64,000 bases of DNA from Candidatus Doudnabacteria bacterium (GTDB lineage: Bacteria; Patescibacteriota; Doudnabacteria; UBA920), in NCBI GenBank assembly GCA_016218585.1, contig JACRDK010000004.1, forward strand, positions 21,347 through 85,346, in the 5' to 3' direction. The translations under genes were made by a program, and so were the position numbers. Of this stretch, positions 1 through 24,842 are shown one piece after another (the stretch's first letter is position 1; every line of letters starts with the position of its first letter). The notes below the pieces were generated by a model, which did not search any database, was not told where the DNA came from, and worked only from the letters and a program-made list of their open reading frames with translations.

Positions 1-254
1 AATTAAAAAACTGGCTTTGCTGAAAAAAGCTTTTTAAGCCAGAAACGTCTATTCCCGGAATTGGCACGTGGGCCAAAATTCTAGTTATGAATAAAAGACC
101 TAGCACAATTAAAATTTTGTTGCGCAGGTCTTTGGTTTTCCAAATAAGAGTGATTTTGTTCATAATAATCTAATGCGAATTACTAATTATTATGCGAATT
201 ATGCGAAAATTTTATTTTCATTTTTCGCATTTTATTTCGTATTATTCGCATTCG

Positions 255-680
255 TTATTTGACTGTGCCGCCAGCTTTTTCAACCTCTGCTTTAACGGAA
301 GCGGATACAGGCAACATAATATTTAATTTCTTTTTGATTTCACCTTTTAAAATTTTCACTTTCAAAACGCCGGAGTCAACCAAGCCTTTATCTTTTAAGG
401 CTTTTAAATCTACGGTTTCGCCTTCGTTGAAGACGCTGAGTTTGGAAAGGCTCAAAGCTAAAACTTTGTCATTCAAAGACCTAAAACCGCGGGACTTAGG
501 CAGCTGTCTTACGAGCGGTTGGCGGCCACCTTCAAAAGTCACGGGCATTTTGCTGTGACCGGTGCGCTTGGTCTGACCTTTGTTACCGCGAGTGGAATAA
601 GTACCTTTACCGCTACCCAAACCACGACCGACAACTTTGCGGCGGTGAATGGATTTTGATTCTTTTTTAACTGATGTAAT
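255..680 (-). CDS. rplO: 50S ribosomal protein L15; the true start is upstream of the ORF-track TTG and is non-canonical or uncertain
   Basis: Translation GRGxGSGKGTYSTRGNKGQ matches the L15 glycine-rich N-terminus. The conserved RRKVVGRG lies in frame upstream of the track start, with no in-frame ATG before a stop. Confidence 0.85.
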   Translation of the reverse strand: MTSVKKESKSIHRRKVVGRGLGSGKGTYSTRGNKGQTKRTGHSKMPVTFEGGRQPLVRQLPKSRGFRSLNDKVLALSLSKLSVFNEGETVDLKALKDKGLVDSGVLKVKILKGEIKKKLNIMLPVSASVKAEVEKAGGTVK

Positions 681-759
681 TTAAGCATAATCTGGTGAAT
701 TAGTAATTTAGAAAATTAGTGAACTAGTTTTCTAATTCTCTAGTTCTTATTCCTACACT

Positions 760-1269
760 TTACTTACGAAGTAACGCAAGCTTTTCTTTACTCTTCATTT
801 TCTTGAAAGCGGCGAATACTGCCTTAACGTTGTTCACTTTGTTGTTGGAACCCAACATTTTGCAGACAATATTCTTAACACCGGACAATTCCATAACAGA
901 ACGGACAGCGCCACCGGCAATAACTCCGGTACCTGGCTTAGCAGGCTTAAGCATTAAAGAGCTGGATTTGTACTTGATGTTAACTCCGTGCGGAATAGTT
1001 TCATTAACAAGAGGCAAAGTCACCATGTTCTTTTTGGCGGCATTAACAGCTTTGTTTACGCTTTCAGATACGTCGGCTCCTTTTTTCAAACCCATGCCAA
1101 CTTTACCTTTGCGATCACCAATAACAACCAAAGCTCTAAAGCGCATTCTTTTACCACCAGCAACTACGCGAGTAACTCTTTTTACTTCCACGACTTTCTG
1201 GTCGAATTCGCTTCTTTCGCGTTCGCCTTCTCTATTTGAATTCTTTCGTCTTTTTTCCATATTATTCAC
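760..1269 (-). CDS. rpsE: 30S ribosomal protein S5
   Basis: The VVAGGKRMRFRALVVIGDRKGKVGMGLKKG motif and its position between L18 and L15. Confidence 0.9.
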   Translation of the reverse strand: MNNMEKRRKNSNREGERERSEFDQKVVEVKRVTRVVAGGKRMRFRALVVIGDRKGKVGMGLKKGADVSESVNKAVNAAKKNMVTLPLVNETIPHGVNIKYKSSSLMLKPAKPGTGVIAGGAVRSVMELSGVKNIVCKMLGSNNKVNNVKAVFAAFKKMKSKEKLALLRK

Positions 1270-1339
1270 TAATTAACACTGATTATTAAAGGATAGACAC
1301 GGATCTGCGTTAATCCGTTTTCAATCCGTGTTTATTATT
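1270..1339. repeat. Intergenic repeat family R3 (CACGGAT hairpin); second copy at 2480-2569
   Basis: TTAACACTGATT...GACACGGAT.T...GTTAATCCGTTTTC..TCCGTGTTT is shared. Confidence 0.8.
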
Positions 1340-1693
1340 TTAAAACTCGAGCCCGCCTTCTCTAGCACCTTCTGCCAATGCCTTTATTCTACCATGATAT
1401 GCGAATCCGCCGCGATCAAAACTAACCGACTTGATATTTTTGGCCATGGCTTTGCCGGCAACCAACTTGCCTACTTCTTTGGCAATTTCGCTCTTTTTGG
1501 CTTTGGATTCAACTTCCAAGCTGGAAGCTGCGGCCAAAGTTTTGCCAACATTGTCATCAATTACTTGAGCGTAAATATGGCGGTTTGCCTTAAATACAGC
1601 CAAGCGTGGACGCTGGGCGCTGCCGGAAATTCTGCTTCTTACGCGGGTGTGGCGAATAGTTCTTTTTAAATTTTTCTGCTTCTGTCTGTTCAT
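1340..1693 (-). CDS. rplR: 50S ribosomal protein L18; start trimmed to the internal ATG (MNRQKQKN...)
   Basis: [23 protein letters not shown] is the typical L18 sequence; the track ORF is over-extended at its 5' end. Confidence 0.85.
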
Positions 1694-1807
1694 ATAATAT
1701 CGCTGAATGATGCGGAACTTAACGCTGAATGTCGCGGAAAGAACCACAACTTGTTAATTAAATTTCTGCGTACTTCCGCGTTATTTTCCGCGCGTTTCCG
1801 CGTTTAT
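1694..1807. repeat. Intergenic repeat family R1 (GCGGAA/TTCCGCG words), copy 1; copy 2 at 3859-3968 is about 95% identical
   Basis: ATCGCTGAATGATGCGGAACTTAACGC...GCGGAAAGAACCACAACTTGTTAATTAAATTTCTGCGTACTTCCGCGTTAT.TTCCGCG.GTTTCCGCGTT occurs in both rplR/rplF and rplE/rplX spacers. Confidence 0.85.
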
Positions 1808-2479
1808 TTATTTGCCGCCTCCGACTACTTTAACAACTTTACCGGCTTTGCGGATTATTACTTCATCGCTGTATTTAATTCCTTTTCCTTTGTATGGTTC
1901 CGGTTTTTTCAATTCTCTAATTTCAGCCGCAAACTGTCCAACCTGCTGTTTGTCCGGACCGGAAATGGTCATAACATTTTTTTCAATGGCAAAAGTCAGA
2001 TTTTCTGGTACTTGGACAAAAATCGGATGGGAAAAACCTAACTGCAAATCTATAACCATGCCTTTTAACTGTCCCAAGCGGGTCACCGCGTTGGCAAAAG
2101 TTTGAGCCTGTCCGGCTTGGTCTTTCTTTTCGGCGTCAGCCTGTTTAACCTGATAGGCTTTCTTTAACTCTTCGGCTTTCTTAACTTCCATTTTAAAACC
2201 AACACCGTTAAGTTCAAGTTTCTTTTCAAAACCTTTTGTTACGCCGTCTACCAAATTTTGAATCAAAGCGCGGAACAAACCCCAAAGAGCTTTTTCCTTC
2301 TTGTTCTCTTTGTTCTTCACGTCAACCAAAATTTCCTTTTCGCTTATGCTAACTTCCACTTTCGGGTTTAAAGGCAAAACTAAAGTACCCTTCGGACCGG
2401 TTACGGTCAAAGTTAAGTCCTTCTTTTCTGCTTTCACTCCCTGGGGGAGGCTAACTGGTTTTTTTCCGACTCTGCTCAT
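1808..2479 (-). CDS. rplF: 50S ribosomal protein L6 with an internal insertion of about 35-40 aa
   Basis: MSRVGKKPV...LGFSHP signature. The protein is 223 aa against about 178 aa normally; the extra segment is KAEELKKAYQVKQADAEKK... Confidence 0.85.
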   Translation of the reverse strand: MSRVGKKPVSLPQGVKAEKKDLTLTVTGPKGTLVLPLNPKVEVSISEKEILVDVKNKENKKEKALWGLFRALIQNLVDGVTKGFEKKLELNGVGFKMEVKKAEELKKAYQVKQADAEKKDQAGQAQTFANAVTRLGQLKGMVIDLQLGFSHPIFVQVPENLTFAIEKNVMTISGPDKQQVGQFAAEIRELKKPEPYKGKGIKYSDEVIIRKAGKVVKVVGGGK

Positions 2480-2569
2480 AAAATTAATATAAATTGATTA
2501 ACACTGATTTAGAACGGATGGACACGGATATCTCTGTTAATCCGTTTTCTGTCCGTGTTTGTCTGTTTT

Positions 2570-2962
2570 TTACCAAACCTGGCACACTACTTCTCCGCCC
2601 ATGCGGGACTTGCGAGCTTCTTTGTCAGTCATCAGACCTTTGGAGGTAGATACCACTGTAATACCATAACCGCTGTTAGTGCGAGGAAGCTTGTCTGCTG
2701 CTAAGTAAATTCTCTGTCCCGGTTTGCTTACTCTCTGAATTCCGCCAATTACCGCTTCGCCGCTTTCCGAGTATTTCAGAGTTATCTTCAACATTTTGTG
2801 CTTATCGGAGAACTCCTCAACGCCGCTAACGAAACCCTCTTTCAATAAAAGCTTTGCCAAGTTATCTTTGAAATTGGAATAGGGCAAAACCAGCTCGTTT
2901 TTGCGGGCTGCGCTTGCATTGCGAATGCGGGTTAACATGTCGGCGATTGGATCTGTGAACAT
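2570..2962 (-). CDS. rpsH: 30S ribosomal protein S8
   Basis: MFTDPIADMLTRIRNA N-terminus; gene order. Confidence 0.9.
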   Translation of the reverse strand: MFTDPIADMLTRIRNASAARKNELVLPYSNFKDNLAKLLLKEGFVSGVEEFSDKHKMLKITLKYSESGEAVIGGIQRVSKPGQRIYLAADKLPRTNSGYGITVVSTSKGLMTDKEARKSRMGGEVVCQVW

Positions 2963-3061
2963 AATTTTACTAAATACTAATTGTTTACTAATATGCTAAT
3001 CTTGATGAATCGTAAGTGAATTGTGTTATTTTGTAAGCAGAAATTCGTGCTTCGTAAAGTT

Positions 3062-3256
3062 CTACCAACTGGCTTTAACTACTCCGGGTATTTCCCCTTT
3101 GCTGGCTAATTCTCTAAAACAGATTCTGCACATATCAAAATCTCTCATATAACCGGCTTTACGGCCGCACTTCCAACAGCGCCTCACTACCCGAGTCTGG
3201 TATTTAGGATTTGTTCTGCTCCTTAAAGATTTTATGATTTGTGCTTGTGTAGCCAT
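3062..3256 (-). CDS. rpsZ: 30S ribosomal protein S14, zinc-ribbon type Z
   Basis: 64 aa with CWKCGR...CRIC Cys4 motif, between S8 and L5. Confidence 0.9.
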
Positions 3257-3318
3257 ACAAAATTAATTTAAGATACTAATCTACTAATTTATGCTAATGA
3301 TACTAACTCGGCTTTAAT

Positions 3319-3858
3319 TTATTTTTTAAACGGGAAGCCTAATAAAGTTAACAATTCTCTGGCTGGTGCGTCTTTGCCTGCGTTAGTAACAACAGAAATT
3401 TCTAAGCCAAAAACATTTTCTAGCGATTCGGAGGAAATTTCCGGGAAAACCAAGTGTTCTTTCATGCCGAGGTGATAATTACCTCTGCCGTCAAAACCAT
3501 CTTTGTTAATCCCCTGGAAATCGCGCACTCTTGGCAAAGCAACGTTTACCAGTTTATCCAAGAAGCTGTACATGCGGTAACCTCTTAAGGTGCAAACAAT
3601 ACCGACAACCTGGTTTTCTCTGACCTTAAATCCGGCAATGGATTTTCTGGCCTTAGTCTTAACCGGAGCCTGTCCGGTAATTTTCTTAACGTCTTCGACA
3701 TATTGGTCAATCTTCTTTTTGTCGTCCTTAACTTTACCAACACCGACGTTAACAATGACTTTAAGAATTTTCGGCACTTGCATAACATTCTTGTAGCCGA
3801 ATTTTTCTTTTAAAACCGGGACTATCTTCTTATTATATTGTTCCTGTAATCTTTCCAT
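3319..3858 (-). CDS. rplE: 50S ribosomal protein L5
   Basis: MERLQEQYNKKIVPVL...VNVGVG typical L5 sequence. Confidence 0.9.
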   Translation of the reverse strand: MERLQEQYNKKIVPVLKEKFGYKNVMQVPKILKVIVNVGVGKVKDDKKKIDQYVEDVKKITGQAPVKTKARKSIAGFKVRENQVVGIVCTLRGYRMYSFLDKLVNVALPRVRDFQGINKDGFDGRGNYHLGMKEHLVFPEISSESLENVFGLEISVVTNAGKDAPARELLTLLGFPFKK

Positions 3859-3968
3859 AAAATCGCTGAATGATGCGGAACTTAACGCGGACTATCGCGG
3901 AAAGAACCACAACTTGTTAATTAAATTTCTGCGTACTTCCGCGTTATCTTCCGCGTGTTTCCGCGTTG
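3859..3968. repeat. Intergenic repeat family R1, copy 2
   Basis: See copy 1. Confidence 0.85.
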
Positions 3969-4292
3969 TTAAACTGCTTTACCGCTGGTTCTGGCCATTC
4001 TCTGCTTGCTGCCATTTTCCAAAAAAGTAAATCCAACGCGGGATGGGTTGCCGGAATTCGGGTCGAGCAGCATAACTTTAGAAACATGGAGGGCTGCAAA
4101 AAATGTAACTTTCTTTCCTGGCTCGCCGGCTTTTTTAGACTTTTCAAACCTGGTATGGACATTAACGTTTTCCACCATCACCTTGGAGATTTTGGGTAAA
4201 ACTTTAATAACCTTGCCGGTCTTTCCTTTGTCTTTTCCGGAAATGACTTTTACGGTATCGCCTGTCTTAATTTTTAGTCTGTTATTATTCAT
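3969..4292 (-). CDS. rplX: 50S ribosomal protein L24
   Basis: KIKTGDTVKVISGKDKGKTGKV is the KOW motif. Confidence 0.9.
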   Translation of the reverse strand: MNNNRLKIKTGDTVKVISGKDKGKTGKVIKVLPKISKVMVENVNVHTRFEKSKKAGEPGKKVTFFAALHVSKVMLLDPNSGNPSRVGFTFLENGSKQRMARTSGKAV

Positions 4293-4418
4293 ATCTTTAC
4301 TAAATACTAATTGATACTAATATACTAATCATTAAATGTTGGGTAATCTTTGAGAGTAAGAATTCGTATATTCGCCTGCCTGCCGGTAGGCAGGTACAAA
4401 TTCGTACTTCGTAAAGTT
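4293..4418. repeat. Intergenic repeat family R2 (ACTAAT and GAATTCGTA words). Copies also lie at 2963-3061, 3257-3318 (partial), 5378-5483, 5901-6020 and 7373-7482
   Basis: CTTTACTAAATACTAATTGATACTAATATACTAAT...AGTAAGAATTCGTATATTCG[P20]TACAAATTCGTACTTCGTAAAGT. Confidence 0.85.
4375..4394. repeat. 20-bp perfect palindrome P20, CCTGCC(T)ACCGGCAGGCAGG; other copies at 7439-7458, 13399-13418 and 24476-24495
   Basis: Exact copies. Two are inserted into R2 copies (R2 at 5378-5483 lacks it), one is inside the partial tRNA-Leu copy, and one is upstream of tuf. Confidence 0.85.
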
Positions 4419-4811
4419 TTAAATTACTTCTGGTGCCAAGCTGACAATTTTCTTAAATCCATCTTCAAAGGAGCCTTTAGCTTTTTCGCGAATTTCTCTC
4501 GGGATAGGACCGAATATGCGGCTTCCTTTTGGCTCACCTTTTTCTTTATCTACAATCACTCCGGCATTTTCATCAAAGCGTATATAAGATCCGTCTTTTC
4601 TGCGAATTTCTTTGCGCAAGCGAACAATTACCGCATAAACTTTATCACCCTTCTTTAAGGAAGAGTTCGGCGCAACCTGCTTGACGGAGCCGGCAACAAT
4701 GTCGCCGATTCTGGCAAAACGATTGCTGTTTTTTCCGTTGACGGAGAAAACATTGACGATCTTTGCGCCAGTATTGTCTGCTATATTAATCCAGGATCTT
4801 ACTTGTAACAT
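4419..4811 (-). CDS. rplN: 50S ribosomal protein L14
   Basis: MLQVRSWINIADNTGAK N-terminus. Confidence 0.9.
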   Translation of the reverse strand: MLQVRSWINIADNTGAKIVNVFSVNGKNSNRFARIGDIVAGSVKQVAPNSSLKKGDKVYAVIVRLRKEIRRKDGSYIRFDENAGVIVDKEKGEPKGSRIFGPIPREIREKAKGSFEDGFKKIVSLAPEVI

Positions 4812-4919
4812 ATAATTCTTTCGCTAGTGCACGGAGGTTGTAGACTCCGCGGATATCATTGACCAAAGCAATTCCTTTTGATCAGCGCTATCCGTGGAAT
4901 CTGCGTATCCGCGAGATAA

Positions 4920-5162
4920 CTAAATTTTATTAATTACTTTAAACTTCTTATCTTTGCTTATTGGTTTAACCGATTCAATCACCACACGGTCTCCGGTTTT
5001 ATACTCATTCGCTTCATCATGAGCTTTAAAACGCTTGGAAATAGTGTAAGATTTTTTATACTTAGCGTGGCGCTTTCTCATATCTACCTTTACCACCACG
5101 GTTTTGTCCATTTTATCGGACACTATAACACCGGTAAGTTGTTGCTTCTTTGATTGTGTCAT
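4920..5162 (-). CDS. rpsQ: 30S ribosomal protein S17
   Basis: LTGVIVSDKMDKTVVVKV; gene order. Confidence 0.85.
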   Translation of the reverse strand: MTQSKKQQLTGVIVSDKMDKTVVVKVDMRKRHAKYKKSYTISKRFKAHDEANEYKTGDRVVIESVKPISKDKKFKVINKI

Positions 5163-5176
5163 ATACTTGATACCTA

Positions 5177-5377
5177 CTACTTAATGCTTTCAACTTTCTT
5201 CTGATTTAGATAAGTCATTATACGGGCAATGTCTTTTTTAACCGCTCCCAATTCCCGGGGGTTCTTTAACTGATTGAGGCGGATTTTAACCGCTAAATCG
5301 TGAGCTTTAGCGCGCAATTCGAGCAACAAGCTTTTAATTTCACCTTCTGATTTAGTTGTTAATTCCTTAAATTTCAT
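5177..5377 (-). CDS. rpmC: 50S ribosomal protein L29
   Basis: 66 aa, MKFKELTTKSEGEI...LRAK; gene order. Confidence 0.8.
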   Translation of the reverse strand: MKFKELTTKSEGEIKSLLLELRAKAHDLAVKIRLNQLKNPRELGAVKKDIARIMTYLNQKKVESIK

Positions 5378-5483
5378 ATCTTTACTAAATACTTATTGAT
5401 ACTAATATACTAATTTTAATCTAAAAGGTAATTTATGGAAGTAAGAATTCGTATATTCGTACAAATTCGTACTTCATAAAGTT

Positions 5484-5900
5484 TTAACCTTGCTTTTCTT
5501 TAACTAAGAATCTGGATTTTACCGGAAGTTTGTAGCTGGCTAATCTCATAGCTTCCTGGGCCTGCTCTCTGGTCACCCCGTCCATTTCAAATAAAATCTT
5601 GCCTTTTTTTACAACTGAAACAAAGTGGTCAACAGCACCTTTACCGCCACCCATAGGGCTTTCGTTTCCGTGGAGGGTAACCGGTTTGTCGGCAAATACG
5701 CGGATCCAAATTTTACCGCCTCTTTGCACATAGCGAGTCATAGCGCGGCGGGCTGCTTCAATCTGACGAGCGGTAACCCAGCTGCTTTCCATGGCTTTTA
5801 AGGCAAAGGTGCCGAAAGCGATTTGTTCGCCGGCGGAAGCCTGTCCTTTAGTATGACCGCGGTGATGTTTGCGGTGTTTTAACTTTTTCGGGATAAACAT
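5484..5900 (-). CDS. rplP: 50S ribosomal protein L16
   Basis: MFIPKKLKHRKHHRG N-terminus. Confidence 0.9.
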   Translation of the reverse strand: MFIPKKLKHRKHHRGHTKGQASAGEQIAFGTFALKAMESSWVTARQIEAARRAMTRYVQRGGKIWIRVFADKPVTLHGNESPMGGGKGAVDHFVSVVKKGKILFEMDGVTREQAQEAMRLASYKLPVKSRFLVKEKQG

Positions 5901-6020
5901 ATCGGTTAAATTTACTATCTTTACTAACTACTAATCGGTACTAATATACTAATCTGTGATTATTAAATTGGTATATTCGTAAAAATTAGTAGTTAGTAAA
6001 GTAAGAGAATTAATTAACAA

Positions 6021-6704
6021 TTAGGCTTTTTTTGGAGCGTCGGCGATATCTTTTACAAAGGTTTTCTTACTTTCAAATACGTCTCCTTTATAAATCCAGA
6101 TTTTTACTCCGACAGTTCCGTAAGTGGTAAAAGCAGTGCTTCTGGCAAAATCTATATTGGCGCGCAAGGTATGAAGAGGAATTTTACCGGAGGAAAGATG
6201 TTCTGTGCGGGCAATATCAGCCCCGTTCAACCTACCGCCAATTGCTACTTTTGCTCCCTTAGCACCGGCGTTCATCATCTGTTCCAAGGACTGCTTCATC
6301 AGTTTTCTAAAAGCAACGCGCTTTTCCAACTGTTCGGCAATGCCGTTAGCAATAACTTGAGCTTGCAGGTTAACTTCTTTAATATCTTCGATGTTAACTT
6401 TTAATTCCTGCTTAATCCCCAACTTCGCTTTAATCTTTTTCTTAAGCTCTTCAATGCCGGCGCCGCCTTTGCCGATTATTAAACCCGGTTTAGTGGTTTT
6501 AATAATGACAGTAATAGTGCCGTCGTTTAAGCGCTCAATGTCGATTCTAACCAAGCCGGCCTTTTTCAAATGCAATTCCAAATATTCGCGAATTTTTACG
6601 TCTTCAGCCAATTGCTTGGAGTAGTTCGCTTTGGAAAACCATCTGGACTTCCAGGTATCGGTTATCTTCAATCTTAGTGATGTTGGGTTTATCTTATGTC
6701 CCAT
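6021..6704 (-). CDS. rpsC: 30S ribosomal protein S3
   Basis: MGHKINPTSLRLKITDTW N-terminus; KH domain. Confidence 0.9.
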   Translation of the reverse strand: MGHKINPTSLRLKITDTWKSRWFSKANYSKQLAEDVKIREYLELHLKKAGLVRIDIERLNDGTITVIIKTTKPGLIIGKGGAGIEELKKKIKAKLGIKQELKVNIEDIKEVNLQAQVIANGIAEQLEKRVAFRKLMKQSLEQMMNAGAKGAKVAIGGRLNGADIARTEHLSSGKIPLHTLRANIDFARSTAFTTYGTVGVKIWIYKGDVFESKKTFVKDIADAPKKA

Positions 6705-6793
6705 AATTTTAGTTAAAAGTTAATCAGGTTAATCAAGTTTATCAAGTCATTTACTTTGCAACTTTATGAACTTGATAACTTTATAAACTCGTT

Positions 6794-7372
6794 TTATACT
6801 CCGGTTTTTCTGTTAAATAATCTGCGTTTGTTGGCAACTTTGTTCATCTTTACTTCTTCATCAGTCTTGAACACCTGGCTCTTTTTCGGTGCGGCATTTA
6901 CCGGCTTCTTGCTTACTGCGTCTTGCTGGTCAACATTTTCAGGTTTAACTTCTTTGCCTTCAGTTTTCTTTAAGAAGCCAAGCTTGGTTTTGCTGGCTTT
7001 GGCCTTCTTCTTTTCTTCCAGCACAACATTAACGTGGCTCATCTTTCTTCTAATTACGAAAGCGCTGCCGCGGGCTCTGGGGAAATAACGCTTCATTTCT
7101 TTGCCCTGGTCGGCGGTAATGCTTTTTATAAACAAAAACTGAGGATCTAAAGAAAAATTATTCTTGGCATTGGCAATGGCGGACTGAAGTAATTTAATAA
7201 CAATCGGGGCAGCCTTTTTGTTGGCATGCTGGAGCTGGACAATCGCGTCCATCGCATTCATGTTCTTGATTAAATTAGTAACCAAGCGCATTTTTCTTGG
7301 GGCAATATGAATATGCCGGGCTGAAGCCTTAACCAATTTTCCGTTATTCTGTTTAGTTGCTTGCTCTGTCAT
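6794..7372 (-). CDS. rplV: 50S ribosomal protein L22 with a Lys-rich C-terminal extension of about 70 aa
   Basis: ASARHIHIAPRKMRLV core. The protein is 192 aa against about 110 aa normally. Confidence 0.85.
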   Translation of the reverse strand: MTEQATKQNNGKLVKASARHIHIAPRKMRLVTNLIKNMNAMDAIVQLQHANKKAAPIVIKLLQSAIANAKNNFSLDPQFLFIKSITADQGKEMKRYFPRARGSAFVIRRKMSHVNVVLEEKKKAKASKTKLGFLKKTEGKEVKPENVDQQDAVSKKPVNAAPKKSQVFKTDEEVKMNKVANKRRLFNRKTGV

Positions 7373-7482
7373 ATTACTATATTTACTAAATACTAATTTT
7401 AAATGGTTTAAATTTTGGAATAAGAATTCGTATATTCGCCTGCCTGCCGGTAGGCAGGTACAAATTCGTACTTCGTAAAGTG

Positions 7483-7815
7483 TTACTTCTTGCTGTCGTC
7501 TTTGGCGGCGTTAAGCTTGGCCTTTTCGGCTTCGGCTTTGGCTAATTCTTGTTCTTTAGCCATCTTACCACCATGACGGAGGAACTTACGAGTCGGAGAA
7601 AATTCTCCAAGCTTGTGGCCTACCATGTTTTCTGTAACGAATACCGGAACGTGAGTACGGCCGTTATGAACCAGGAAAGTAAAGCCTACAAACTCAGGGG
7701 CAATAGTGCAGGATCTGGACCAAGTTTTAATTTGGGTCTGACCGGCCTTGCCGTTTTGCACTTTCTTTACCACTCTCGGGTCTACGTATGGTCCTTTTTT
7801 TAGTGATCTAGACAT
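7483..7815 (-). CDS. rpsS: 30S ribosomal protein S19 with a C-terminal extension
   Basis: [12 protein letters not shown]...TFLVHNGR. Confidence 0.9.
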
Positions 7816-7900
7816 AAAATCAGTTCTTAAAGTTAATCAAGTTTTAAAGTTTATAAAGTTATGCCGTCCACTTGATGAACTTGATAACTTGATAAGCTTG

Positions 7901-8737
7901 TTACTTACTGCGTCTCTTAATAATCATTTTATTGCTGTATTTCTTCTTGCTTCTGGTCTTAACGCCAAGGGCATGTTTACCCCATGGAGTCTTTGGATAT
8001 TTCATACCAATCGGGTTATGACCTTCACCACCACCATGAGGGTGATCTACCGGGTTCATAACTTTACCGCGAACAGTTGGTCTCCAACCCATCAAGCGCA
8101 TTCTGCCGGCCTTGCCAATACGGACATTCATCCAATCGGAATTAGCTAACTGGCCAACTGTGGCTAAACAGGTTTCTCTGACTCTGCGGATTTCACCGCT
8201 TGGTAATTTAAGCAAAGCATAACCGGCTTCAACTGTCTGCAAGGTGGCATAAGCTCCGGCGCTTCTAGCCATTCTGCCGCCCTGTCCTGGAGTTAACTCA
8301 ATATCATGTATAAAAGTACCAACTGGAATATTTTTAATAGCTAAGCGGTTTCCCGGTAAAATTTCAGCTGTTTCGCCGAACATAACTTTGTCGCCAACTT
8401 TTAAACCCTGGGGGGTTAAAATAAAACGCTTGGCTCCATCATTATAGTGCAATAAGGAAATAAAAGCTGTGCGGGTCGGATCGTATTCAATGGTAACAAC
8501 TTTCGCCGGGATATTCTTTTTATCTTCACGGGAAAAATCCACCAAGCGAACTTTGCGGATAGCGCCGCCGCCCTGATGGCGAACGGTGATTTTTCCGCTG
8601 TTGTTGCGTCCGGCCGGTTTGGCTTTGGAAACTATCAAACCCTTCGGGGTCTTGGAAGTTTTATGCAAAACCGAATAATCGGTCACACTTTGAATGCGCC
8701 TTCCTGCGGATGTTGGTTTGTATAATTTAACGGCCAT
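7901..8737 (-). CDS. rplB: 50S ribosomal protein L2
   Basis: [14 protein letters not shown]...[10 protein letters not shown]. Confidence 0.9.
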
Positions 8738-8840
8738 AGTTAGATTTAAAAAATTAAATAATATTTAAATGATTGGGCATGATTTTAGCAATCTAATTCT
8801 TGTCATTCTTAATTAATCATACCAATCTTGTCAATTACGT

Positions 8841-9197
8841 TTATATTACGTCGGTTAAGCCTTCAATTTTGTCGCCCTTTTTCAAAGTGACAATGGCTTT
8901 TTTAAAAGATGAGGTTCTGCCGCTGCGCTGGCCAAAGTTTCTCTGTTTGCCGCGGTTGATTACCATATTCACCTGCAAAACTTTTACCTTATAAGCATCT
9001 TCAACAGCTTTCTTAACTTCCACTTTGTTTGCGCCCATGCCAACTTTAAACACGTACTTGTTTAGTTTAACTAAGTGGCCGGCTTTCTCGGAAATTCTCG
9101 GGCTTACCAACACGCTAGGAATCCTAATGGCTGGGGCTCCGGCTGTTTCAGTTGCCTTTTCGGCAGTTGTAGTTTTCTTCTTGCTAATAATAGCCAT
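8841..9197 (-). CDS. rplW: 50S ribosomal protein L23 with an N-terminal extension
   Basis: Gene order, with a KYVFKV...core. Confidence 0.75.
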   Translation of the reverse strand: MAIISKKKTTTAEKATETAGAPAIRIPSVLVSPRISEKAGHLVKLNKYVFKVGMGANKVEVKKAVEDAYKVKVLQVNMVINRGKQRNFGQRSGRTSSFKKAIVTLKKGDKIEGLTDVI

Positions 9198-9202
9198 AAA
9201 AA

Positions 9203-9856
9203 TTACTTAACGTTATTCTTCAAATAGGTTTTTTCAATAACCTGCAAGCTGTCCTTTAATACTATCATGCTATCGGCTTTCAAGATATCCAGAAGATTCA
9301 GGCTGCTAGCTAATATTGGAGTGACAAAAGGGAGATTGCGGGAGCTGCGGACTAATTTGTCGTCTTTCTTTGCCATGACCAACAATTGCTTTTTGCCGGA
9401 ATTTTTTACGGCATTCTTTAAGCCGTCTAAAATTTTGGCCATATCTTTGGTCTTTGGATTTTCCATGGAAATCTGATCGACAACTATGAACCGGTTTTCT
9501 TTAGCCTTGTCGGAAAGAGTCATAAACAAAGCCTGAACTTTAGCTTTTTTATTCAACTTTAATTCCCAATTGCGGTTGCTGCGCGGTCCAAAGGTTACTC
9601 CACCATGACGCCAAATCGGGCTGCGGGTGCTGCCAGCTCTAGCTCGGCCGGTACCTTTTTGCTTCCAAGGTTTTTTACCGCCACCAGATACTTCACCGCG
9701 GGTTTTGGTATGAGCAGAACCCTGGCGGGCATTTGACTGTTGGATGCGAACCGCTTCCGCGAGCAAATGAGTTTTAGGCTTAACGTCAAAGATTTTGGAA
9801 TTTAATTCCACATCCCCGACAACTTCCGCTTTTTGGTTGTAAAGATTTACTTTCAT
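9203..9856 (-). CDS. rplD: 50S ribosomal protein L4
   Basis: 217 aa with a Gly/Arg-rich loop (KQKGTGRARAGSTRSPIWRHGG). Confidence 0.85.
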   Translation of the reverse strand: MKVNLYNQKAEVVGDVELNSKIFDVKPKTHLLAEAVRIQQSNARQGSAHTKTRGEVSGGGKKPWKQKGTGRARAGSTRSPIWRHGGVTFGPRSNRNWELKLNKKAKVQALFMTLSDKAKENRFIVVDQISMENPKTKDMAKILDGLKNAVKNSGKKQLLVMAKKDDKLVRSSRNLPFVTPILASSLNLLDILKADSMIVLKDSLQVIEKTYLKNNVK

Positions 9857-9932
9857 AACTTGAGTGAATTAGTGATACACAGATCTAGTGAGTTAGTTAT
9901 CTAATTCTCTAACTCTCTTTTTCTCTAGCTTG

Positions 9933-10598
9933 CTACTTCTTTTTCTTATCGTCTTTTACTTTAGGAATTATTACTAAAGGTTTAACTTTTCCGGTGGAAA
10001 TAACTTTTATAGTTCCATTTCTGTGTCCCGGAACCGCACCCTTTAAAGTAATTAAATTATTTTTAGCATCAACTTCGACAATCTGTAAATTCTTTACTGT
10101 AACCTGCTCAACGCCCATATGTCCGGACATTCTTAGGCCCCTGCGGGTATGCTGAGGAAAACGTTGACCAATGGAACCGACAGAGCGGGGCTTGTTATGA
10201 CCGTGGCTGGCTGGGAAACCGGCGAAACCGTGGCGCTTCATTGCACCGGCGAAACCGCGTCCCTTACTTATGCCAATAACATTAACCACTTCACCCGGAA
10301 CAAAGCTGCTAATTTCCAATTTCTGTCCGCGTTCGTATTTGTCGTTTTCGCCTACGCGAAATTCCGACAAAACGCCAAAAGTACCCAAATCCTTTAGGTG
10401 TCCCTGTAAAGATTTAGATACTTTTTTCTTTTTGTCGATACCGACTTGCACTGCATTATATTTATCTTTGCCACCGGCAGACTTAACCTGGGTAACAACC
10501 ATAGATCCGGCCTTAACAACAGTAACCGGAATTACTTCGCCGGTTGCTTCGTCAAAATACTGAGTCATATTGAGTTTCTTGCCTATCAAAAAGTTCAT
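9933..10598 (-). CDS. rplC: 50S ribosomal protein L3
   Basis: LIGKKLNMTQYFDEATGEVIPVTVV. Confidence 0.9.
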   Translation of the reverse strand: MNFLIGKKLNMTQYFDEATGEVIPVTVVKAGSMVVTQVKSAGGKDKYNAVQVGIDKKKKVSKSLQGHLKDLGTFGVLSEFRVGENDKYERGQKLEISSFVPGEVVNVIGISKGRGFAGAMKRHGFAGFPASHGHNKPRSVGSIGQRFPQHTRRGLRMSGHMGVEQVTVKNLQIVEVDAKNNLITLKGAVPGHRNGTIKVISTGKVKPLVIIPKVKDDKKKK

Positions 10599-10821
10599 AG
10601 TTTGGTAATAAGTTAAAAAAAACGGGCCGATTTGCCCGTAAGTATCAACACGGAATCAATACCATGTTGGTTCTTGCTGGTAAATCGTTGTCCCATTGGT
10701 TGACCCGTTACGACGGGTTTGGCCTATGAGAACTAATTTCCAAATAATTTGATTGTTTTATTTGCGCAATCTACGCCCGCCTGCAACGCATATGCGTAGC
10801 ATTTCGGGCAGGTATCTGCGA

Positions 10822-11145
10822 TTACGACATCTTAATCTCTACATCCACACCGGCCGGAAGATTTAAGTTAGTAAGGGCGTCGATGGTTTTAGGAGTTGCG
10901 GAAACTATATCAATTAATCTTTTATGAACGCGCATTTCAAACTGTTCGCGGCTGTCTTTGTGAACGAAAGTAGAACGAAGTACTGTGTACTTAGTTTTTT
11001 CCGTAGGCAGCGGAATTGGGCCTGAAATAGTCGCCCCGGTCCTTTTGGCCGTGTCAACAATTTGTTTAGAGCTCTGGTCAATAAGCTTATGATCGTAAGC
11101 TCTAATCTTTATACGAATTTTGGGAGCGGCTGGTTGCTTGTCCAT
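10822..11145 (-). CDS. rpsJ: 30S ribosomal protein S10
   Basis: [17 protein letters not shown]. Confidence 0.9.
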
Positions 11146-11376
11146 TTGTTAAGATGCTCTTAACTTGATTAATATGGGCTACAAAACAAGGCTTTTTAAA
11201 GCCCTTGTAGCACTTGCAATATTTTATACGAACCCTGAGATTTTGTCAAATAGCAAATCTGCTCAAAACCTAAATGACCAAATGCCAATTATCCACCCCA
11301 AAACAGCTTAAAAATATGCTTTTACCTCTGTTTTTCACAAATTCCGCTTAATTATAAGCATTTTCAGTAAAAACCA

Positions 11377-11405
11377 TTGACAAAATACTTAAAAAATGCT
11401 ATAAT
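11377..11405 (+). promoter_or_regulatory. Near-perfect sigma70 promoter, TTGACA-17 bp-TATAAT, driving the small ORF at 11443
   Basis: TTGACA at 11377-11382, a 17-nt spacer and TATAAT at 11400-11405. An AAGGAGGG ribosome-binding site lies 8 nt before the ATG. Confidence 0.6.
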
Positions 11406-11442
11406 CTTTGGGTTAAATTTCCTTTAAGGAGGGAGAATAGAA

Positions 11443-11688
11443 ATGACTGTAAGGATAGAGCGACTGGCTGTGAGAATGTCAATTTTCCTCTATGGCATTC
11501 TGAACGCGATTTTCGTGGGCATCGCCTATAAGCCGGCCATGTCCTACACAAAAAGCTCATCGGGAGAGTTGGCAAACCTGCTGACGATGCTTCTGATTGA
11601 AGCCCTTGTGTTGTTCAACCTCGCGATAGCGGCAACAGCCCTACTCATGAGGCTTGAGAAAAAACCTGACGCCACGACTCAAACGTAA
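11443..11688 (+). CDS. Small hydrophobic protein (81 aa, two predicted TM helices), antisense to the ribosomal-protein and tuf genes
   Basis: Consensus promoter, strong ribosome-binding site and two tandem terminators; local GC is higher than the surroundings. Confidence 0.55.
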   Translation: MTVRIERLAVRMSIFLYGILNAIFVGIAYKPAMSYTKSSSGELANLLTMLLIEALVLFNLAIAATALLMRLEKKPDATTQT

Positions 11689-11719
11689 ACAACCCGGGCT
11701 TGCCCGAGATGGCAAGCAG

Positions 11720-11806
11720 ACAGCGCAGACCTTTACCGGCCTGCGCTGTTTTCAATTTCTTAATACAAACTAAAACTCCCCTCGCGAAAGCGGGGGGAGT
11801 TTTTTC
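11720..11806 (+). terminator. Tandem rho-independent terminators
   Basis: CAGCGCAG...CTGCGCTG+TTTT, then CTCCCCTCGCGAAAGCGGGGGGAG+TTTTTT. Confidence 0.6.
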
Positions 11807-11845
11807 TACAAGCTAATTACTACTTACTACTAACTAGTAATTAAG

Positions 11846-13033
11846 CTATTTGATGATTTTAGTAACAACACCAGCGCCTACGGTATGGCCACCTTCGCGA
11901 ATAGCGAATTTGCCTTTTTCTTCCAAAGCGACCGGAGTAATTAATTTCACAACCAACTTTACGGTGTCTCCTGGCATAACCATTTCCTGACCTTCCGGCA
12001 AGGTAACGTCACCAGTAACATCGGTGGTGCGAATATAGAATTGCGGCTTATAACCCTTAAAGAACGGGGTATGGCGTCCGCCTTCTTCTTTGCTCAAAAT
12101 ATATACTTCGGTTTCAAACTCGGTATGAGGAGTAATGGAACCCGGTTTGCACAAAACTTGTCCGCGTTCTACTTCTTCTTTCTTAGTACCGCGGAGCAAA
12201 ATTCCTGCGTTGTCCCCTGCCATACCGCTGTCCAACTGCTTGTTGAACATTTCGATACCGGTAACAACAGTCTTAGTTGTTGGCTTTAAACCAACAATTT
12301 CAATTTCATCGGATAATTTAATTTCACCGCGTTCGATTCTACCGGTAACTACGGTACCGCGTCCTTCAATGGAGAAGATGTCTTCAATCGGCATTAAGAA
12401 CGGTTTGTCGGTTTCGCGCTTCGGATCCGGGATGTAGGTGTCCAAATATTCAACAAGTTTCAAAATGGAACCTTCGCCCATTTCAGAAGTGTCTCCTTCC
12501 AAGGCTTTCAAAGCAGAACCGCGAACAATCGGGGTGTCTTTGCCTGGGAATTCGTATTTGGTCAAAAGGTCGCGAATTTCTTCTTCAACCAATTCCAAAA
12601 GTTCAGCATCCTGAACCATATCGCACTTGTTCATGTAAACAATAATGTAAGGAACACCTACCTGCTTGGCTAACAAAATGTGTTCGCGAGTCTGCGGCAT
12701 AGGACCGTCAGTAGCGGATACAACCAAGATGGCTCCGTCCATTTGAGCAGCACCGGTAATCATGTTCTTGATATAGTCGGCGTGTCCCGGACAGTCAACG
12801 TGGGCGTAGTGGCGCTTAGCGCTTTCATATTCCACGTGAGCAGTGTTAATGGTAATACCACGGGCTTTTTCTTCCGGGGCATTGTCAATGCTGTCGTAGG
12901 CGCGAGCCTTGGCTCCACCAGTTTTAGACAGAACTGTAGTAATAGCAGCAGTAAGGGTGGTTTTGCCGTGGTCAACGTGACCAATGGTACCAACGTTTAC
13001 GTGCGTTTTGCTACGGTCAAATTTGTCTGCCAT
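11846..13033 (-). CDS. tuf: Elongation factor Tu
   Basis: [15 protein letters not shown] and the full-length EF-Tu sequence. Confidence 0.95.
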
Positions 13034-13459
13034 TTGAATTTGCCTTTCTTTCGGAGAATCGGATTGTCGGAGAATCGGAAATAAAGTTTTGGCTTAATTT
13101 TCCGACTTTCTGATTTTTCTGATTTTCCGGGTTGCCCGAGACCCCCTCATCACTAATGCTTATCGATAAGGCATCAGTGCCGAGGGTATCTCTTTCTTTC
13201 CTTACGGAATCCAGGGCATTTGATTAATTAATTTTTACCCGCCTTAAGCTCGAAAGCTTTGGTTAGGGCTAGAACTTATTTTAAAGATATTTTGCCTTGC
13301 TGTCAAACAGCATAATGTGATACTGATATACAAATACATTCGGATGATACTGATAATACCGATTCGCTCTTTGTCAGTTTGTCAGTATCTTTATTAACCC
13401 TGCCTACCGGCAGGCAGGCGTATTATCAGTATTCAAATCTGTATATCTGCATCATAGCT

Positions 13460-13816
13460 CTATAAATCTTCCATATCCATCTTTGGGCCTTCAAAGTCAA
13501 AACTCGGATCTATGACCTCAGCGCGCAAATCCACCCTGGGAAATGCCCGCTCGCTAATTATAACCGGCCCTTTAACCGCCGCCTCGGGAACAGACGGCGC
13601 GGGCGAAACAGGAGCCTCTTCCTGTAATTGCGCATTTAAAATTTCCCTATTTATTTTTTCAACATCCAAAATTTGTTTTTGCAGTTTTCCCAGCAGCAGG
13701 CGCTGATATTCCGCCAGCGGCAAAATTACCAATTGTGTCTCCCCTGTTTCATCAATAACAAAAAACTTGCCTCCATCGGCCTTGGCTAAATTTATAATAT
13801 CCTTTAATGAATTCAT
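13460..13816 (-). CDS. Hypothetical protein; the N-terminus weakly resembles a Phd/YefM-type fold (QLVILPLAEYQRLL)
   Basis: 118-aa ORF; motif similarity only. Confidence 0.35.
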   Translation of the reverse strand: MNSLKDIINLAKADGGKFFVIDETGETQLVILPLAEYQRLLLGKLQKQILDVEKINREILNAQLQEEAPVSPAPSVPEAAVKGPVIISERAFPRVDLRAEVIDPSFDFEGPKMDMEDL

Positions 13817-13951
13817 GATTTTTCTTTCTTAATTTCCCGCCAGGGGCGGGCATTCCCTAATTTCATTCTCATTATACGCCTCTTAGAAAGGCTTTACAAC
13901 TTTCTAAATAATTTGGTATTCTTGGGACTAGAATTTTGCAGGAGGATTGCG

Positions 13952-14320
13952 ATGTTGATTGTTTGTAAGGTGTTTGCTGTTTTGGTTTTTTATCACTCAG
14001 CGTCCTTTATGCATGCTGCCATAAATATGTTAATTTACAGAAACTTACCTAGCAGCGAAAGGAAAACTTCTGGCCCAATAACAAAAGCCTTCCACCTCGG
14101 AATTGCCATTTTGGCAACGACTCTTCTCCCCCCCTCACAAATCACAATACAAGAACTAGCCTTAGCAATTTTGGTTTATGCTGGCACGGCCATCTGGTGT
14201 TTTAACAAGGCAGTGAAGCACGTAAAGGATCAAAAAACGAGAGAGGCAAATGTATTTGGCGGTACTGGGATAGCGTTTATGTCGTTAGTTTTTTTCTTTT
14301 TTGGGTTGTGCTTGGTGTAG
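13952..14320 (+). CDS. Hypothetical membrane protein (about 122 aa, roughly 4 TM helices); start moved to the ATG preceded by AGGAGG
   Basis: gcAGGAGGattgcgATG; a hairpin plus T-run terminator lies at 14353-14400. Confidence 0.5.
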   Translation: MLIVCKVFAVLVFYHSASFMHAAINMLIYRNLPSSERKTSGPITKAFHLGIAILATTLLPPSQITIQELALAILVYAGTAIWCFNKAVKHVKDQKTREANVFGGTGIAFMSLVFFFFGLCLV

Positions 14321-14550
14321 AACCTCCTTACCGCAAAACAAGAACAGCTTTGTGCCGGCGGGTCCGTAAGGACTCCGCCGGCATCATCATTTTTATATTT
14401 TATAAATTGTGCAGATTTGGACGATCGTCAGAATATGTACAAAGATAAAAATGTAAAATACTCTGAAAGCTCTAAATTTAAAACAGGCCAATGCAATCGC
14501 ATTGGCCTGTTTTTATCTGTACTATCTGTTCCCATCCGTAATCCGTGATT

Positions 14551-16671: not shown

Positions 16672-16864
16672 AAATAAATATTAGATTAGAGATTTAAGAA
16701 TTAAACTTTTATTTTTAATTTTGAAGTTTCCAAAACTTTTGTAACAGTCTATCAAGCTTTTAAAGTTGTAAAGTTTTTCAAGTTTCTACATCCGCTTTAT
16801 GAACTTAACGGACACGGCTAACTTGATAAACTTTACAAACTTGATGAACTTTTAACTCGTCGCT

Positions 16865-17431: not shown

Positions 17432-17519
17432 ATGTTTATTCCACTAATTCACGAATTCTCACTAATTTCACGAATACCACTTAGTGTGATTCGTGATGAT
17501 TAGTGAATTCGTGGATAAA
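17432..17519. repeat. Repeat family R6 (CACGAAT words) immediately downstream and upstream of rpsL; second copy at 17934-18019, about 90% identical over about 75 bp
   Basis: CACTAATTTCACGAATA.CACTTAGT.T.ATTCG.GATGATTAGTGAATTCGTGGATAAATTATT occurs on both sides of rpsL. Confidence 0.85.
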
Positions 17520-17933
17520 TTATTTTCTCTTCGTTCCGTATTTAGAACGGCTTCTCTTTCTCCCGTCGACTCCGAGAGTATCTAGCTTTCCGCGAACAAT
17601 GTGATAACGGACACCGGGAAGATCTTTTACACGTCCGCCGCGGATCATTACTACGCTGTGTTCCTGTAAGTTGTGGCCAATACCCGGGATGTAAGCAATA
17701 ACTTCCATTCCGTTGGTAAGTTTGACCTTAGCCACTTTACGCAAAGCCGAGTTCGGCTTTTTAGGCGTTGTGGTATAAACCTTTAAACAGACACCGCGCA
17801 TAAACGGGGCGCCGGTTTTTATGAACAATGTCTTGTTCTTTATCAAGTTCTGCCTGCGCATTAACGCCGGAGACTTGCTTTTGGTTTTAAGAGGGCTTCT
17901 GCCTCTGCGAACCAATTGATTGATTGTTGGCAT
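17520..17933 (-). CDS. rpsL: 30S ribosomal protein S12
   Basis: [12 protein letters not shown]...[10 protein letters not shown]. Confidence 0.95.
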
Positions 17934-23242: not shown

Positions 23243-23257
23243 AATATAATCTTAAAT

Positions 23258-24453: not shown

Positions 24454-24506
24454 GGCCGAGTGGTGGAATGGCAGACCTGCCTACCGGCAGGCAGGCACAA
24501 ACGACT
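24454..24506 (+). pseudogene. Partial duplicate of the tRNA-Leu 5' half (acceptor, D-arm and 5' anticodon stem), interrupted by the 20-bp palindrome
   Basis: GGCCGAGTGGTGGAATGGCAGAC + CTGCCTACCGGCAGGCAGG + CACAAACGACT are identical to the 5' half of the intact tRNA at 24759. Confidence 0.75.
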
Positions 24507-24520: not shown

Positions 24521-24808
24521 ATGTACACAGTTTATGCTATAAGTAGCTTAACTAAGAATTACATATACGTAGGTCTAACAGATAATATTCTCAGGAGATT
24601 TACTCAGCATAATCAAGGCTGGGTAAAAACAACAAGAAGCTATAAACCTTTTAAGCTCTTATATACGGAAAACGTTCCTAACCGTATATCTGCTAGAGCA
24701 AGAGAGAAATACTTAAAGAGCGGCATAGGAAAAGAATTTTTAAAAAGTTTATTGATAAGGCCGAGTGGTGGAATGGCAGACACAAACGACTCAAAATCGT
24801 TCGCTTAA
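24521..24808 (+). CDS. GIY-YIG domain (URI-type) endonuclease, about 80-95 aa; the 3' end runs into the tRNA-Leu gene
   Basis: YTVYAISS...YIYVGLT...RRFTQHNQG...KLLYTE...REKYLKS motifs; TATAAT sits 4 nt before the ATG. Confidence 0.7.
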   Translation: MYTVYAISSLTKNYIYVGLTDNILRRFTQHNQGWVKTTRSYKPFKLLYTENVPNRISARAREKYLKSGIGKEFLKSLLIRPSGGMADTNDSKSFA

Positions 24809-24842
24809 CGGCATGAGGGTTCGACTCCCTCCTCGGCCACCA
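24759..24842 (+). tRNA. tRNA-Leu (anticodon CAA), type II with a long variable arm
   Basis: Acceptor GGCCGAG/CTCGGCC, anticodon loop CTCAAAA, T-arm GAGGGTTCGACTCCCTC, CCA. Confidence 0.8.

Follow-up and report, generated by a model that had tools for sequence, protein, structure and literature searches.

The window studied here, a 64,000-nt stretch of a Candidatus Doudnabacteria chromosome, carries four copies of the 20-mer CCTGCCTACCGGCAGGCAGG. We refer to this allele as A8 and to the perfect palindrome of the same family, CCTGCCTGCCGGCAGGCAGG, as P, a name also used below for the element in general. Our results show that P forms a distinct unit of 20 nt, that it entered unrelated DNA in many separate insertion events across many phyla, and that it propagates as heritable alleles. 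They also show that P is tightly and selectively associated with one GIY-YIG nuclease gene family at transfer RNA (tRNA) genes. The interpretation we favour, in which our confidence is evenly balanced, is that the window 20-mer represents the A8 allele of a cross-phylum family of 20-nt non-autonomous mobile hairpins, which would act as cis partners of ~80-aa GIY-YIG nucleases of the Slx1/UPF0213 type. The A8 element encodes nothing and is not autonomous, and as a member of a cross-phylum family it is not genome-specific.

The four A8 copies compare with 0.00 expected in 100 shuffles of the window, and no extra copy appears even when up to three mismatches are allowed. A previous reading made from the letters alone (the sequence-only reading) had already counted four copies. 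It had also called the 20-mer a perfect palindrome, which holds for P, the commonest allele elsewhere, and not for the window, where A8 and its reverse complement disagree at two positions (18/20 match, centre TACCGGCA). As single-stranded DNA, A8 is predicted to fold into a 7-bp stem with a 6-nt loop (-6.1 kcal/mol).

Comparison with empty sites demonstrates that A8 behaves as an insertion. Two spacers of the R2 repeat family carry A8 between GAATTCGTATATTCG and TACAAATTCGTAC, and they differ by exactly 20 nt from a third R2 copy in which these flanks are directly joined. In a truncated tRNA-Leu copy, A8 stands between GGCAGA and CACAAACGACT, two segments that adjoin each other in the intact tRNA-Leu(CAA), and the same filled tRNA-Leu site is present in an independent Logan assembly contig (SRR12113407). 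Both filled/empty relationships had been pointed out in the sequence-only reading and are confirmed here. Its further statement that each copy sits inside another element is confirmed for three copies. The one at 13399 lies in a word-repeat spacer between fusA with its neighbouring open reading frame (ORF) and tuf, and a search for an empty paralogue of it gave none. One insertion followed by duplication of the spacer may have given rise to both R2 copies, so that the window records three to four insertion events. All four copies are A8, comprising one copy within a GIY-YIG cassette (24454-24842) and three solo copies. Orthologous empty sites in close relatives were not found by exact-protein look-ups with the GIY-YIG protein and L14, which matched the same sample only, or with S19, which had no entry.

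To analyze the distribution of P, we scanned the Genome Taxonomy Database (GTDB), one genome per species, with the pattern CCTGCCTRCCGGYAGGCAGG. At least 120 species genomes from more than 10 phyla carry a P-family 20-mer. Among the matches listed, carriers from the Candidate Phyla Radiation (CPR/Patescibacteria) include Saccharibacteria, Parcubacteria, WWE3, Uhrbacteria, Doudnabacteria and others; further carriers belong to Bacteroidota, Omnitrophota, Planctomycetota, Nitrospirota, Chloroflexota, Ignavibacteria, Bdellovibrionota and Thermodesulfobacteriota, and to uncultured gamma- and deltaproteobacteria. Cultured organisms (Winogradskyella echinorum, Flagellimonas yonaguniensis, Olivibacter oleidegradans, Longitalea luteola, Flavivirga and Thermobacterium salinum) and one single-cell genome also carry it. 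The 127 sites among the matches listed divide into 80 P, 46 A8 and one double variant, and the sequence flanking P is unrelated between carrier genomes. Alleles tend to be uniform within a genome: A8 accounts for 4/4 copies in the window, 3/3 each in L113, L148/149 and RPRQ01, and likewise for those in L090 and L156, while other genomes are all-P and a few are mixed. About 45 viral contigs carry P as well. A search of viral contigs with the 18-mer core returned 60 sites, and the core is flanked by C...G in 57 of them; therefore, the unit is 20 nt long.

The sequence-only reading had recommended a search for filled and empty sites in other genomes and for target-site duplications. Further exact 20-nt pairs were indeed found. 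Two filled loci (L141 and L158) are 96-97% identical over 70 nt to an empty one (L130), the difference being the exact 20-mer, and intragenomic filled/empty pairs occur in L030, in L033, in L148/L149 and in the repeat family of L150/L162. No target duplication is seen in any pair, and the exact junction is ambiguous by just 1 nt where the next base is C. Target-site duplication and a unit of 18 or 19 nt are both ruled out by these pairs and by the C...G flanks. At sites oriented by A8, insertion has polarity: C or A precedes the element in 92%, and it is followed by C in 76% and by T in 21%. The dinucleotide CG follows the element in 29% of sites versus a background of 6.4%.

P also inserts into itself. 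In all nested cases read (L020, L026 and L065), the younger copy lies 1 nt off the centre of the older one, splitting it into halves of 9 and 11 nt, and the older, interrupted copy is often the more diverged. Nesting occurs despite the tiny share of the genome that P occupies, and therefore implies a very strong target preference for P's own dyad. Only 25-40% of P sites lie inside long ORFs versus 74-89% of random positions, as expected if selection purges frame-shifting 20-nt insertions. General targeting of hairpin loops was considered and rejected, since perfect stems of at least 6 bp flank 11.9% of the junctions versus a background of about 5-6%, and DNA folding places 14-19% of the junctions in loops versus 12%.

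Two viral contigs are rich in P or P-like units. A 29.5-kb contig (IMGVR_UViG_3300037242_000417; L150/L159/L162) holds at least seven copies, several of them inside another short repeat family of which P-free members exist; no GIY-YIG gene of the window family was detected on this P-rich replicon. In IMGVR_UViG_3300025106_000007 (L170, 3905-4160), a tandem array contains at least ten copies of the 21-nt unit CCATGCCTACCGGCAGGCAGG, that is, a P-like 20-mer plus one base, in a minisatellite-like expansion.

The association with the GIY-YIG family was assessed on loci chosen without regard to P. Eighty metagenome loci were picked solely by similarity to the window GIY-YIG protein, for which at least 565 relatives were confirmed; once the window itself and four genome loci with a previously seen P were added, they gave 88 GIY-YIG ORFs. 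A P-like 20-mer (at most four mismatches) lies within the zone from 150 nt upstream to 130 nt downstream of 74 of the 88 ORFs (84%), with 43 exact matches and 12 with one mismatch, while none was found in the 156 kb of these loci situated more than 600 nt from any GIY-YIG ORF. In loci selected by pattern, several P copies lie 20-70 nt upstream of small GIY-YIG ORFs beside tRNA-Leu, -Lys, -Arg or -Met genes or inside hsdS. The sequence-only reading had suggested testing the GIY-YIG and DUF559 nucleases encoded nearby. The physical association supports a link with the former, the putative mobilising enzyme; no DUF559 domain was seen among the ORFs scanned near the copies, in a scan of the window that was not exhaustive.

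The GIY-YIG genes lie at tRNA-Leu, -Lys, -Arg, -Met and -Asn genes and in hsdS, and ordinary tRNA genes occur without a cassette. An intact tRNA lies downstream of or overlaps 52 of the 85 ORFs counted, nearly always a tRNA-Leu (five anticodons), with the others at contig ends. Two mirror-image classes of cassette can be distinguished: in the first, a truncated 5' tRNA copy with P precedes the GIY-YIG gene and the intact tRNA follows it; in the second, the intact tRNA and its terminator precede the gene, and a 3' or full tRNA copy with P follows. In both classes, P is always in the non-functional tRNA copy. Its recurrent positions are the D-loop (GGCGGAA^TTGGTAGAC), the end of the D-arm (GGTAGA^CGCGC; GGCAGA^CACAA in the window), the anticodon loop, the T-loop or the boundary of the T-stem, and the variable arm, all of which are loop or junction positions of the cloverleaf. 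A fixed spacing between P and the end of the duplicate, as in the set-distance cleavage of I-TevI, is ruled out by distances of 5 to ~37 nt. No orthologous cassette-free allele from a close relative was retrieved.

Several loci depart from these two arrangements. Full-length tRNA genes (Met, Leu) broken only by P occur at L154 2239-2330, L175 1130-1240 and L211 2740-2850, where P occupies the variable loop, the D-arm end or the D-loop, and the L154 contig shows no second intact copy. At L021 4018-4225 and L044 3616-3787, a P-bearing truncated tRNA stands directly upstream of an intact tRNA with no GIY-YIG ORF between them, and in L021 a tRNA is seemingly split around an inserted tRNA-Met. Either these cassettes lost their gene, or the duplication arises in another way. 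In the window, the end of the GIY-YIG domain coincides with the start of the intact tRNA, and translation would continue ~50 nt into tRNA-Leu; an overlap of the ORF with the tRNA (-41 to -47 nt) is seen again in many related cassettes.

Within the cassettes, P is conserved beyond what neutrality allows. When 63 non-redundant cassettes are compared pairwise, identity averages 0.93 in P, 0.69 at codon positions 1+2 of the nuclease gene and 0.42 at position 3. At such divergence, no neutral 20-mer would still be recognisable; P is therefore selected or continually renewed. Of 25 cassettes in which the tRNA duplicate has not yet diverged from the functional tRNA, 23 already have P, which is therefore no late arrival. 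These two results rule out that P is a passive passenger in a neutral sink. An artefact of sequencing, adapters or assembly was considered as well, many matches being metagenome-assembled genomes. However, P is found in genomes from many laboratories, among them cultured isolates and one single-cell genome, it occupies homologous positions in homologous cassettes and is reproduced in an independent assembly, and it is better conserved than the neighbouring coding sequence and depleted in ORFs. We consider an artefact hardly credible.

One lineage of cassettes lies outside tRNA genes. Here, hsdS carries the GIY-YIG domain as an in-frame insertion in its conserved "GELVP" region, with P (19-20/20) exactly at the left junction and the spacer after P diverged. 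[quoted passage not shown] That P abuts host sequence at the left edge of the GIY-YIG block raises an alternative for the solo copies, namely that each is the footprint of a cassette that was inserted, with P as its terminal element, and later deleted. Recombination between the duplicated tRNA segments would leave a full-length tRNA with P alone, as in L175, L211 and L154. Yet GIY-YIG cassettes occur almost only at tRNA genes, as the counts above indicate, while solo P lies in arbitrary intergenic DNA; copies of P nested in P contain no cassette remnant; and exact 20-nt differences would demand perfectly precise deletions at sites without flanking repeats. We therefore regard the footprint explanation as improbable.

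Variant hairpins provide a view of what is selected. The variants V2 (CCTGTCTGCCGACAGGCAGG) and V4 (CCTGTCTACCGACAGGTAGA) go with the "REKYWKSG...EKL" clade of GIY-YIG proteins. In V2, V4, V3 and V5, a 6-bp stem (positions 1-6 with 11-16) is retained by compensatory changes, V3 and V5 having A at position 5 and T at position 12. Counts for the 5.12 pair are 825 for C.G, 27 for T.A versus 6 each for the single changes T.G and C.A, and 4 for A.T versus 4 and 4 for the single changes. The T[G/A]CC loop and the 4-nt tail vary in the variants. This pattern is suggestive of a selected structure consisting of a strand-specific hairpin plus tail, of which the perfect palindrome would be a special case that gives the same structure on both strands.

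A preserved stem could also be explained by a motif that benefits the host, such as a terminator, stabilising or processing hairpin or a protein-binding site, spread by selection, horizontal transfer and gene conversion. The position of the two R2 copies shortly after stop codons in highly expressed ribosomal operons and the predicted stability of P-type hairpins (-6 to -8 kcal/mol) would suit such a role. Orientation is not fixed, however: three window copies are sense and one antisense with respect to transcription, and one recurrent tRNA position (site A) is used both ways. No T-run follows the hairpin, the downstream letters being CGAATATACG, CGTATTATCA or CACAAACGAC, unlike at an intrinsic terminator. 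In Rfam, only tRNAs score above threshold in the window, and P is overlapped by no match even at E<=1 around 24200-24900. Moreover, the flanks are unrelated, and exact 20-nt filled/empty differences with self-nesting are not produced by selection alone. A host-beneficial motif thus appears to us a poor candidate, about as improbable as deletion footprints.

Table 1 Positions of the P element, its empty site and the GIY-YIG cassette in the window, and of the hsdS-type insertion in two further loci
Feature	Position	Strand	Description
P element copy 1, A8	4375..4394	-	Within R2 copy 4262-4421, 24 nt past the rplN (L14) stop codon
P element copy 2, A8	7439..7458	-	Within R2 copy 7352-7485, 24 nt past the rpsS (S19) stop codon
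Empty site, R2 spacer copy	5445..5472	-	GAATTCGTATATTCG directly joined to TACAAATTCGTAC, junction 5459|5460
P element copy 3, A8	13399..13418	+	Spacer between 118-aa ORF (13460-13816, downstream of fusA) and tuf (11846-13033)
P element copy 4, A8	24476..24495	+	After D-arm of truncated tRNA-Leu copy (site B, GG[C/T]AGA^C, recurrent); 25 nt upstream of GIY-YIG start codon
Truncated tRNA-Leu copy, part 1	24454..24475	+	tRNA positions 1-22, GGCCGAGTGGTGGAATGGCAGA
Truncated tRNA-Leu copy, part 2	24496..24506	+	tRNA positions 23-33, CACAAACGACT; ends at U33, just before the anticodon
Small GIY-YIG nuclease gene	24521..24808	+	95-codon ORF; conserved 78-aa domain 24521-24754; no stop codon of its own
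Intact functional tRNA-Leu(CAA)	24759..24842	+	First 33 nt duplicated upstream at 24454-24506
P and GIY-YIG domain in type I restriction S subunit	L089 3861-4160; L255 2556-2860		In frame after GELVP; P translated PACRQAG or PAGRQAG

The window nuclease matches the GIY-YIG family PF01541 over residues 1-67 with 59.4 bits (cutoff 22.6; E = 4e-16). Residues Y5, Y16, G18, R26, H30 and E62 are invariant in six divergent members and conserved over the 88 members as well; by analogy with I-TevI and Slx1, we take Y5, Y16, R26, H30 and E62 to have catalytic roles. The conserved part spans ~78 aa and is accompanied by no other conserved domain. The Slx1/UPF0213 branch is known for cutting branched and hairpin DNA. 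In profile comparisons, solved structures of the UPF0213 proteins BH0048 and EF2693 and of SLX1 endonucleases come closest (1zg2, 1.6e-10; 1ywl, 5.9e-10; SLX1 chains, 8e-6 to 6e-4), ahead of I-TevI (9e-4). The protein is therefore a minimal representative of this branch, probably structure-specific, and not a typical sequence-specific homing enzyme. Prokaryotic Slx1-like proteins have been described as the minimal stand-alone form (PMC1564403). The window GIY-YIG family is absent from the plasmids of PLSDB.

We then propose a model for the partnership. The element would consist of a 6-bp stem (1-6/11-16), a T[G/A]CC tetraloop and a 4-nt tail, and the nuclease may recognise this hairpin in single-stranded or extruded DNA and cut at its base and at targets. 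The 20-nt unit could thereby be excised or copied and rejoined elsewhere by host repair or ligation, which would leave no target duplication. The preferred target would be [A/C]^C(G), including P's own centre and the loop positions of tRNA genes, and insertions would persist only in non-essential DNA such as intergenic spacers and redundant tRNA fragments. Part of the tRNA is duplicated in each cassette, which leaves one functional copy, and P resides in the dispensable other. There, P might be kept by selection as the nuclease's site, and it may also interrupt the homology between the direct repeats, through which the cassette would otherwise be lost.

Several observations weigh against this model. 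Only 5-7 of the 127 pattern-selected genomic P sites adjoin a GIY-YIG gene, ~95% being solo, and the window GIY-YIG family occurs in only two P-bearing viral loci (L140/L253 and L167). In phage collections, the only homologues are 44%-identical GIY-YIG proteins of Rhizobium phages, with no P nearby; the association therefore belongs to the window subfamily. Solo sites are at most 1.5-2-fold enriched in predicted hairpin loops, a weak preference from which we conclude that structure-directed targeting is not general, and it is retained here only for tRNA-derived targets. On the enzymatic side, GIY-YIG enzymes hydrolyse DNA and, to our knowledge, do not carry out strand transfer, and a domain of 78 aa that has no DNA-binding module is small for recognising 20 bp specifically. 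Support for the compensatory pair comes from about two independent lineages, and the DNA folding of V2 is energetically ambiguous between two registers. Finally, both the association of P with the GIY-YIG gene and the correlation of alleles with clades could arise from linkage in a co-inherited cassette.

In the main rival, P owes its mobility to an enzyme or host pathway other than this nuclease, such as an unlinked HUH/Y1 transposase or the repair of hairpin-prone DNA, and GIY-YIG cassettes keep a copy for their own benefit. P might protect the cassette from deletion by splitting the direct tRNA repeat, serve as an operator, or form an RNA-stabilising hairpin for the nuclease gene. Besides the prevalence of solo sites and the viral contigs that lack the gene, this explanation would account for the constant interruption of the redundant repeat by P and for the position of P in the 5' or the 3' untranslated region of the GIY-YIG gene in the two cassette types, and the hairpin-plus-tail build and insertion polarity recall single-strand elements of the IS200/IS605 type. 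However, clustering of the ORFs around P in 120 loci returned only GIY-YIG and housekeeping genes, with no other recurrent family; a linked transposase or RAYT (REP-associated tyrosine transposase; REP, repetitive extragenic palindromic) is accordingly rejected for the ORFs clustered there, whole genomes not having been searched. An identical 20-mer across phyla would also need an equally widespread and conserved partner, and the GIY-YIG family is the only one seen. Furthermore, P lies at the junction of the GIY-YIG block in the hsdS lineage too, and variant hairpins track GIY-YIG clades. On balance, we judge a separate mobiliser rather unlikely. The core of the sequence-only reading, a tiny palindromic inserted element with a possible link to the GIY-YIG nuclease nearby, is supported by the exact 20-nt pairs, the lack of target duplication, the self-nesting, the heritable alleles and the 84% association with the gene family.

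Full-text literature searches found no description of the 20-mer, of its 12- or 14-nt cores, or of such a GIY-YIG/tRNA/palindrome element. Among known systems, this one would appear to work most like REP/RAYT, in which a palindromic satellite is paired with a dedicated nuclease-type gene flanked by it. In both, short non-autonomous extragenic hairpins are dispersed in the genome, a single-copy nuclease-type gene is flanked by the repeat, and alleles are maintained; the extragenic dispersal is seen here in four copies per 64 kb versus none expected and in the depletion from ORFs. Unlike in REP/RAYT, the partner is a GIY-YIG protein of the Slx1/UPF0213 type and not an HUH Y1 transposase, the unit is a single 20-mer and not a 35-nt REP or a REP doublet (REPIN), the same sequence recurs in more than 10 phyla at usually low copy number where REPs are species-specific, and the gene of the partner is lodged at a tRNA locus that includes a duplicated tRNA segment. 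The IS200/IS605 insertion sequences (IS608, ISDra2) and derived palindrome-associated elements resemble P in lacking target duplications, in their hairpin-defined ends, in strand polarity beside a short target motif and in having a hairpin with a short tail. They differ in having two subterminal hairpins where P has one and in the class of enzyme; no TnpA/HUH gene was found near P, and the target [A/C]^C(G) is weak.

The nuclease gene itself recalls free-standing GIY-YIG homing genes such as T4 SegB, which lies in a tRNA cluster, and I-TevI, in that it lies in or beside highly conserved genes (tRNA, hsdS) and has apparently spread by horizontal transfer. As with the autorepression of I-TevI through operator binding, a DNA site that the enzyme may bind lies next to the gene. 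However, the 78-aa catalytic domain stands alone here, lacking the DNA-binding domains to which homing enzymes owe their specificity, a partial duplication in the cassette restores the tRNA, and the conserved 20-nt palindrome also spreads alone. The GC clusters of yeast mitochondria and the PstI palindromes of Neurospora mitochondria are likewise small G+C-rich palindromes that insert cleanly into A+T-richer spacers and into each other, lie near tRNA and rRNA genes and show filled/empty polymorphisms; they are organellar, lineage-specific, generally longer or equipped with target-site features, and have no dedicated nuclease known, whereas P is bacterial and cross-phylum. Miniature inverted-repeat transposable elements (MITEs) and Rickettsia palindromic elements are similarly non-autonomous insertions tolerated in spacers and occasionally in genes. 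MITEs, however, measure 50-500 bp and have terminal inverted repeats derived from an insertion sequence as well as target duplications, while P has 20 bp and neither feature; no parent insertion sequence for P was found.

The window as a whole is bacterial chromosome of ~40% G+C with the str, S10 and spc ribosomal operons on the minus strand, in which we read genes for S12, S7, EF-G, EF-Tu, S10 ... S19, L22, L16, S17, L14 and L24. These operons are normally compact, and long spacers are unusual in them. Over positions 1-18100, the ribosomal genes are split by ~100-160-nt spacers of short repeated words (ATTAGTA, TACGAA, GTGAATTAGT and others), which form families: 1694-1804 with 3857-3967 (95% identical), 4262-4421 with 5347-5483 and 7352-7485, and 17432-17528 with 17932-18028. 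P in other genomes tends likewise to lie in word-repeat spacers. The 118-aa ORF on the minus strand between fusA and tuf, beside copy 3, matches no Pfam or NCBIfam entry and is unexpected in a str operon. A 40-nt palindrome, AAATTGGTCAAATTTGGACGATCGTCCAAATTTGACCAAA, lies just downstream of parB (23204-23243) and has an 80%-similar copy downstream of fusA (14404-14443); it could serve to bind a protein, perhaps as a parS-like site. Further small hairpins, namely CTGCCGATTTATCGGC and GCCTGATAAATCAGGC, together with repeated ACTACGAC words, occupy 24300-24375 just upstream of the truncated tRNA copy and are not P-like.

It is tempting to speculate further that the 78-aa GIY-YIG protein and P jointly constitute a new class of bacterial mobile system, in which the nuclease excises and re-inserts, or copies, the 20-nt hairpin, and the gene spreads across phyla via tRNA-Leu with a self-repairing duplication. 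We put this forward tentatively and with considerable doubt. If it is true, GIY-YIG enzymes would join the HUH, DDE and serine/tyrosine enzymes as catalysts of prokaryotic transposition. If the link between P and the nuclease is correct, P would be the smallest mobile DNA unit described (20 nt), constant over more than 10 phyla and served by a nuclease class not known for prokaryotic transposition. The link would also give a function to the widespread small genes annotated as "GIY-YIG nuclease family protein" (UPF0213/Slx1-like) beside tRNA genes, account for truncated tRNA fragments that confuse tRNA annotation, and provide a defined 20-bp substrate for a minimal structure-specific nuclease, and possibly a compact tool for DNA-hairpin recognition. 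Even with another mobiliser, a cleanly inserting 20-mer that is identical across phyla and more conserved than the adjacent coding sequence needs explaining.

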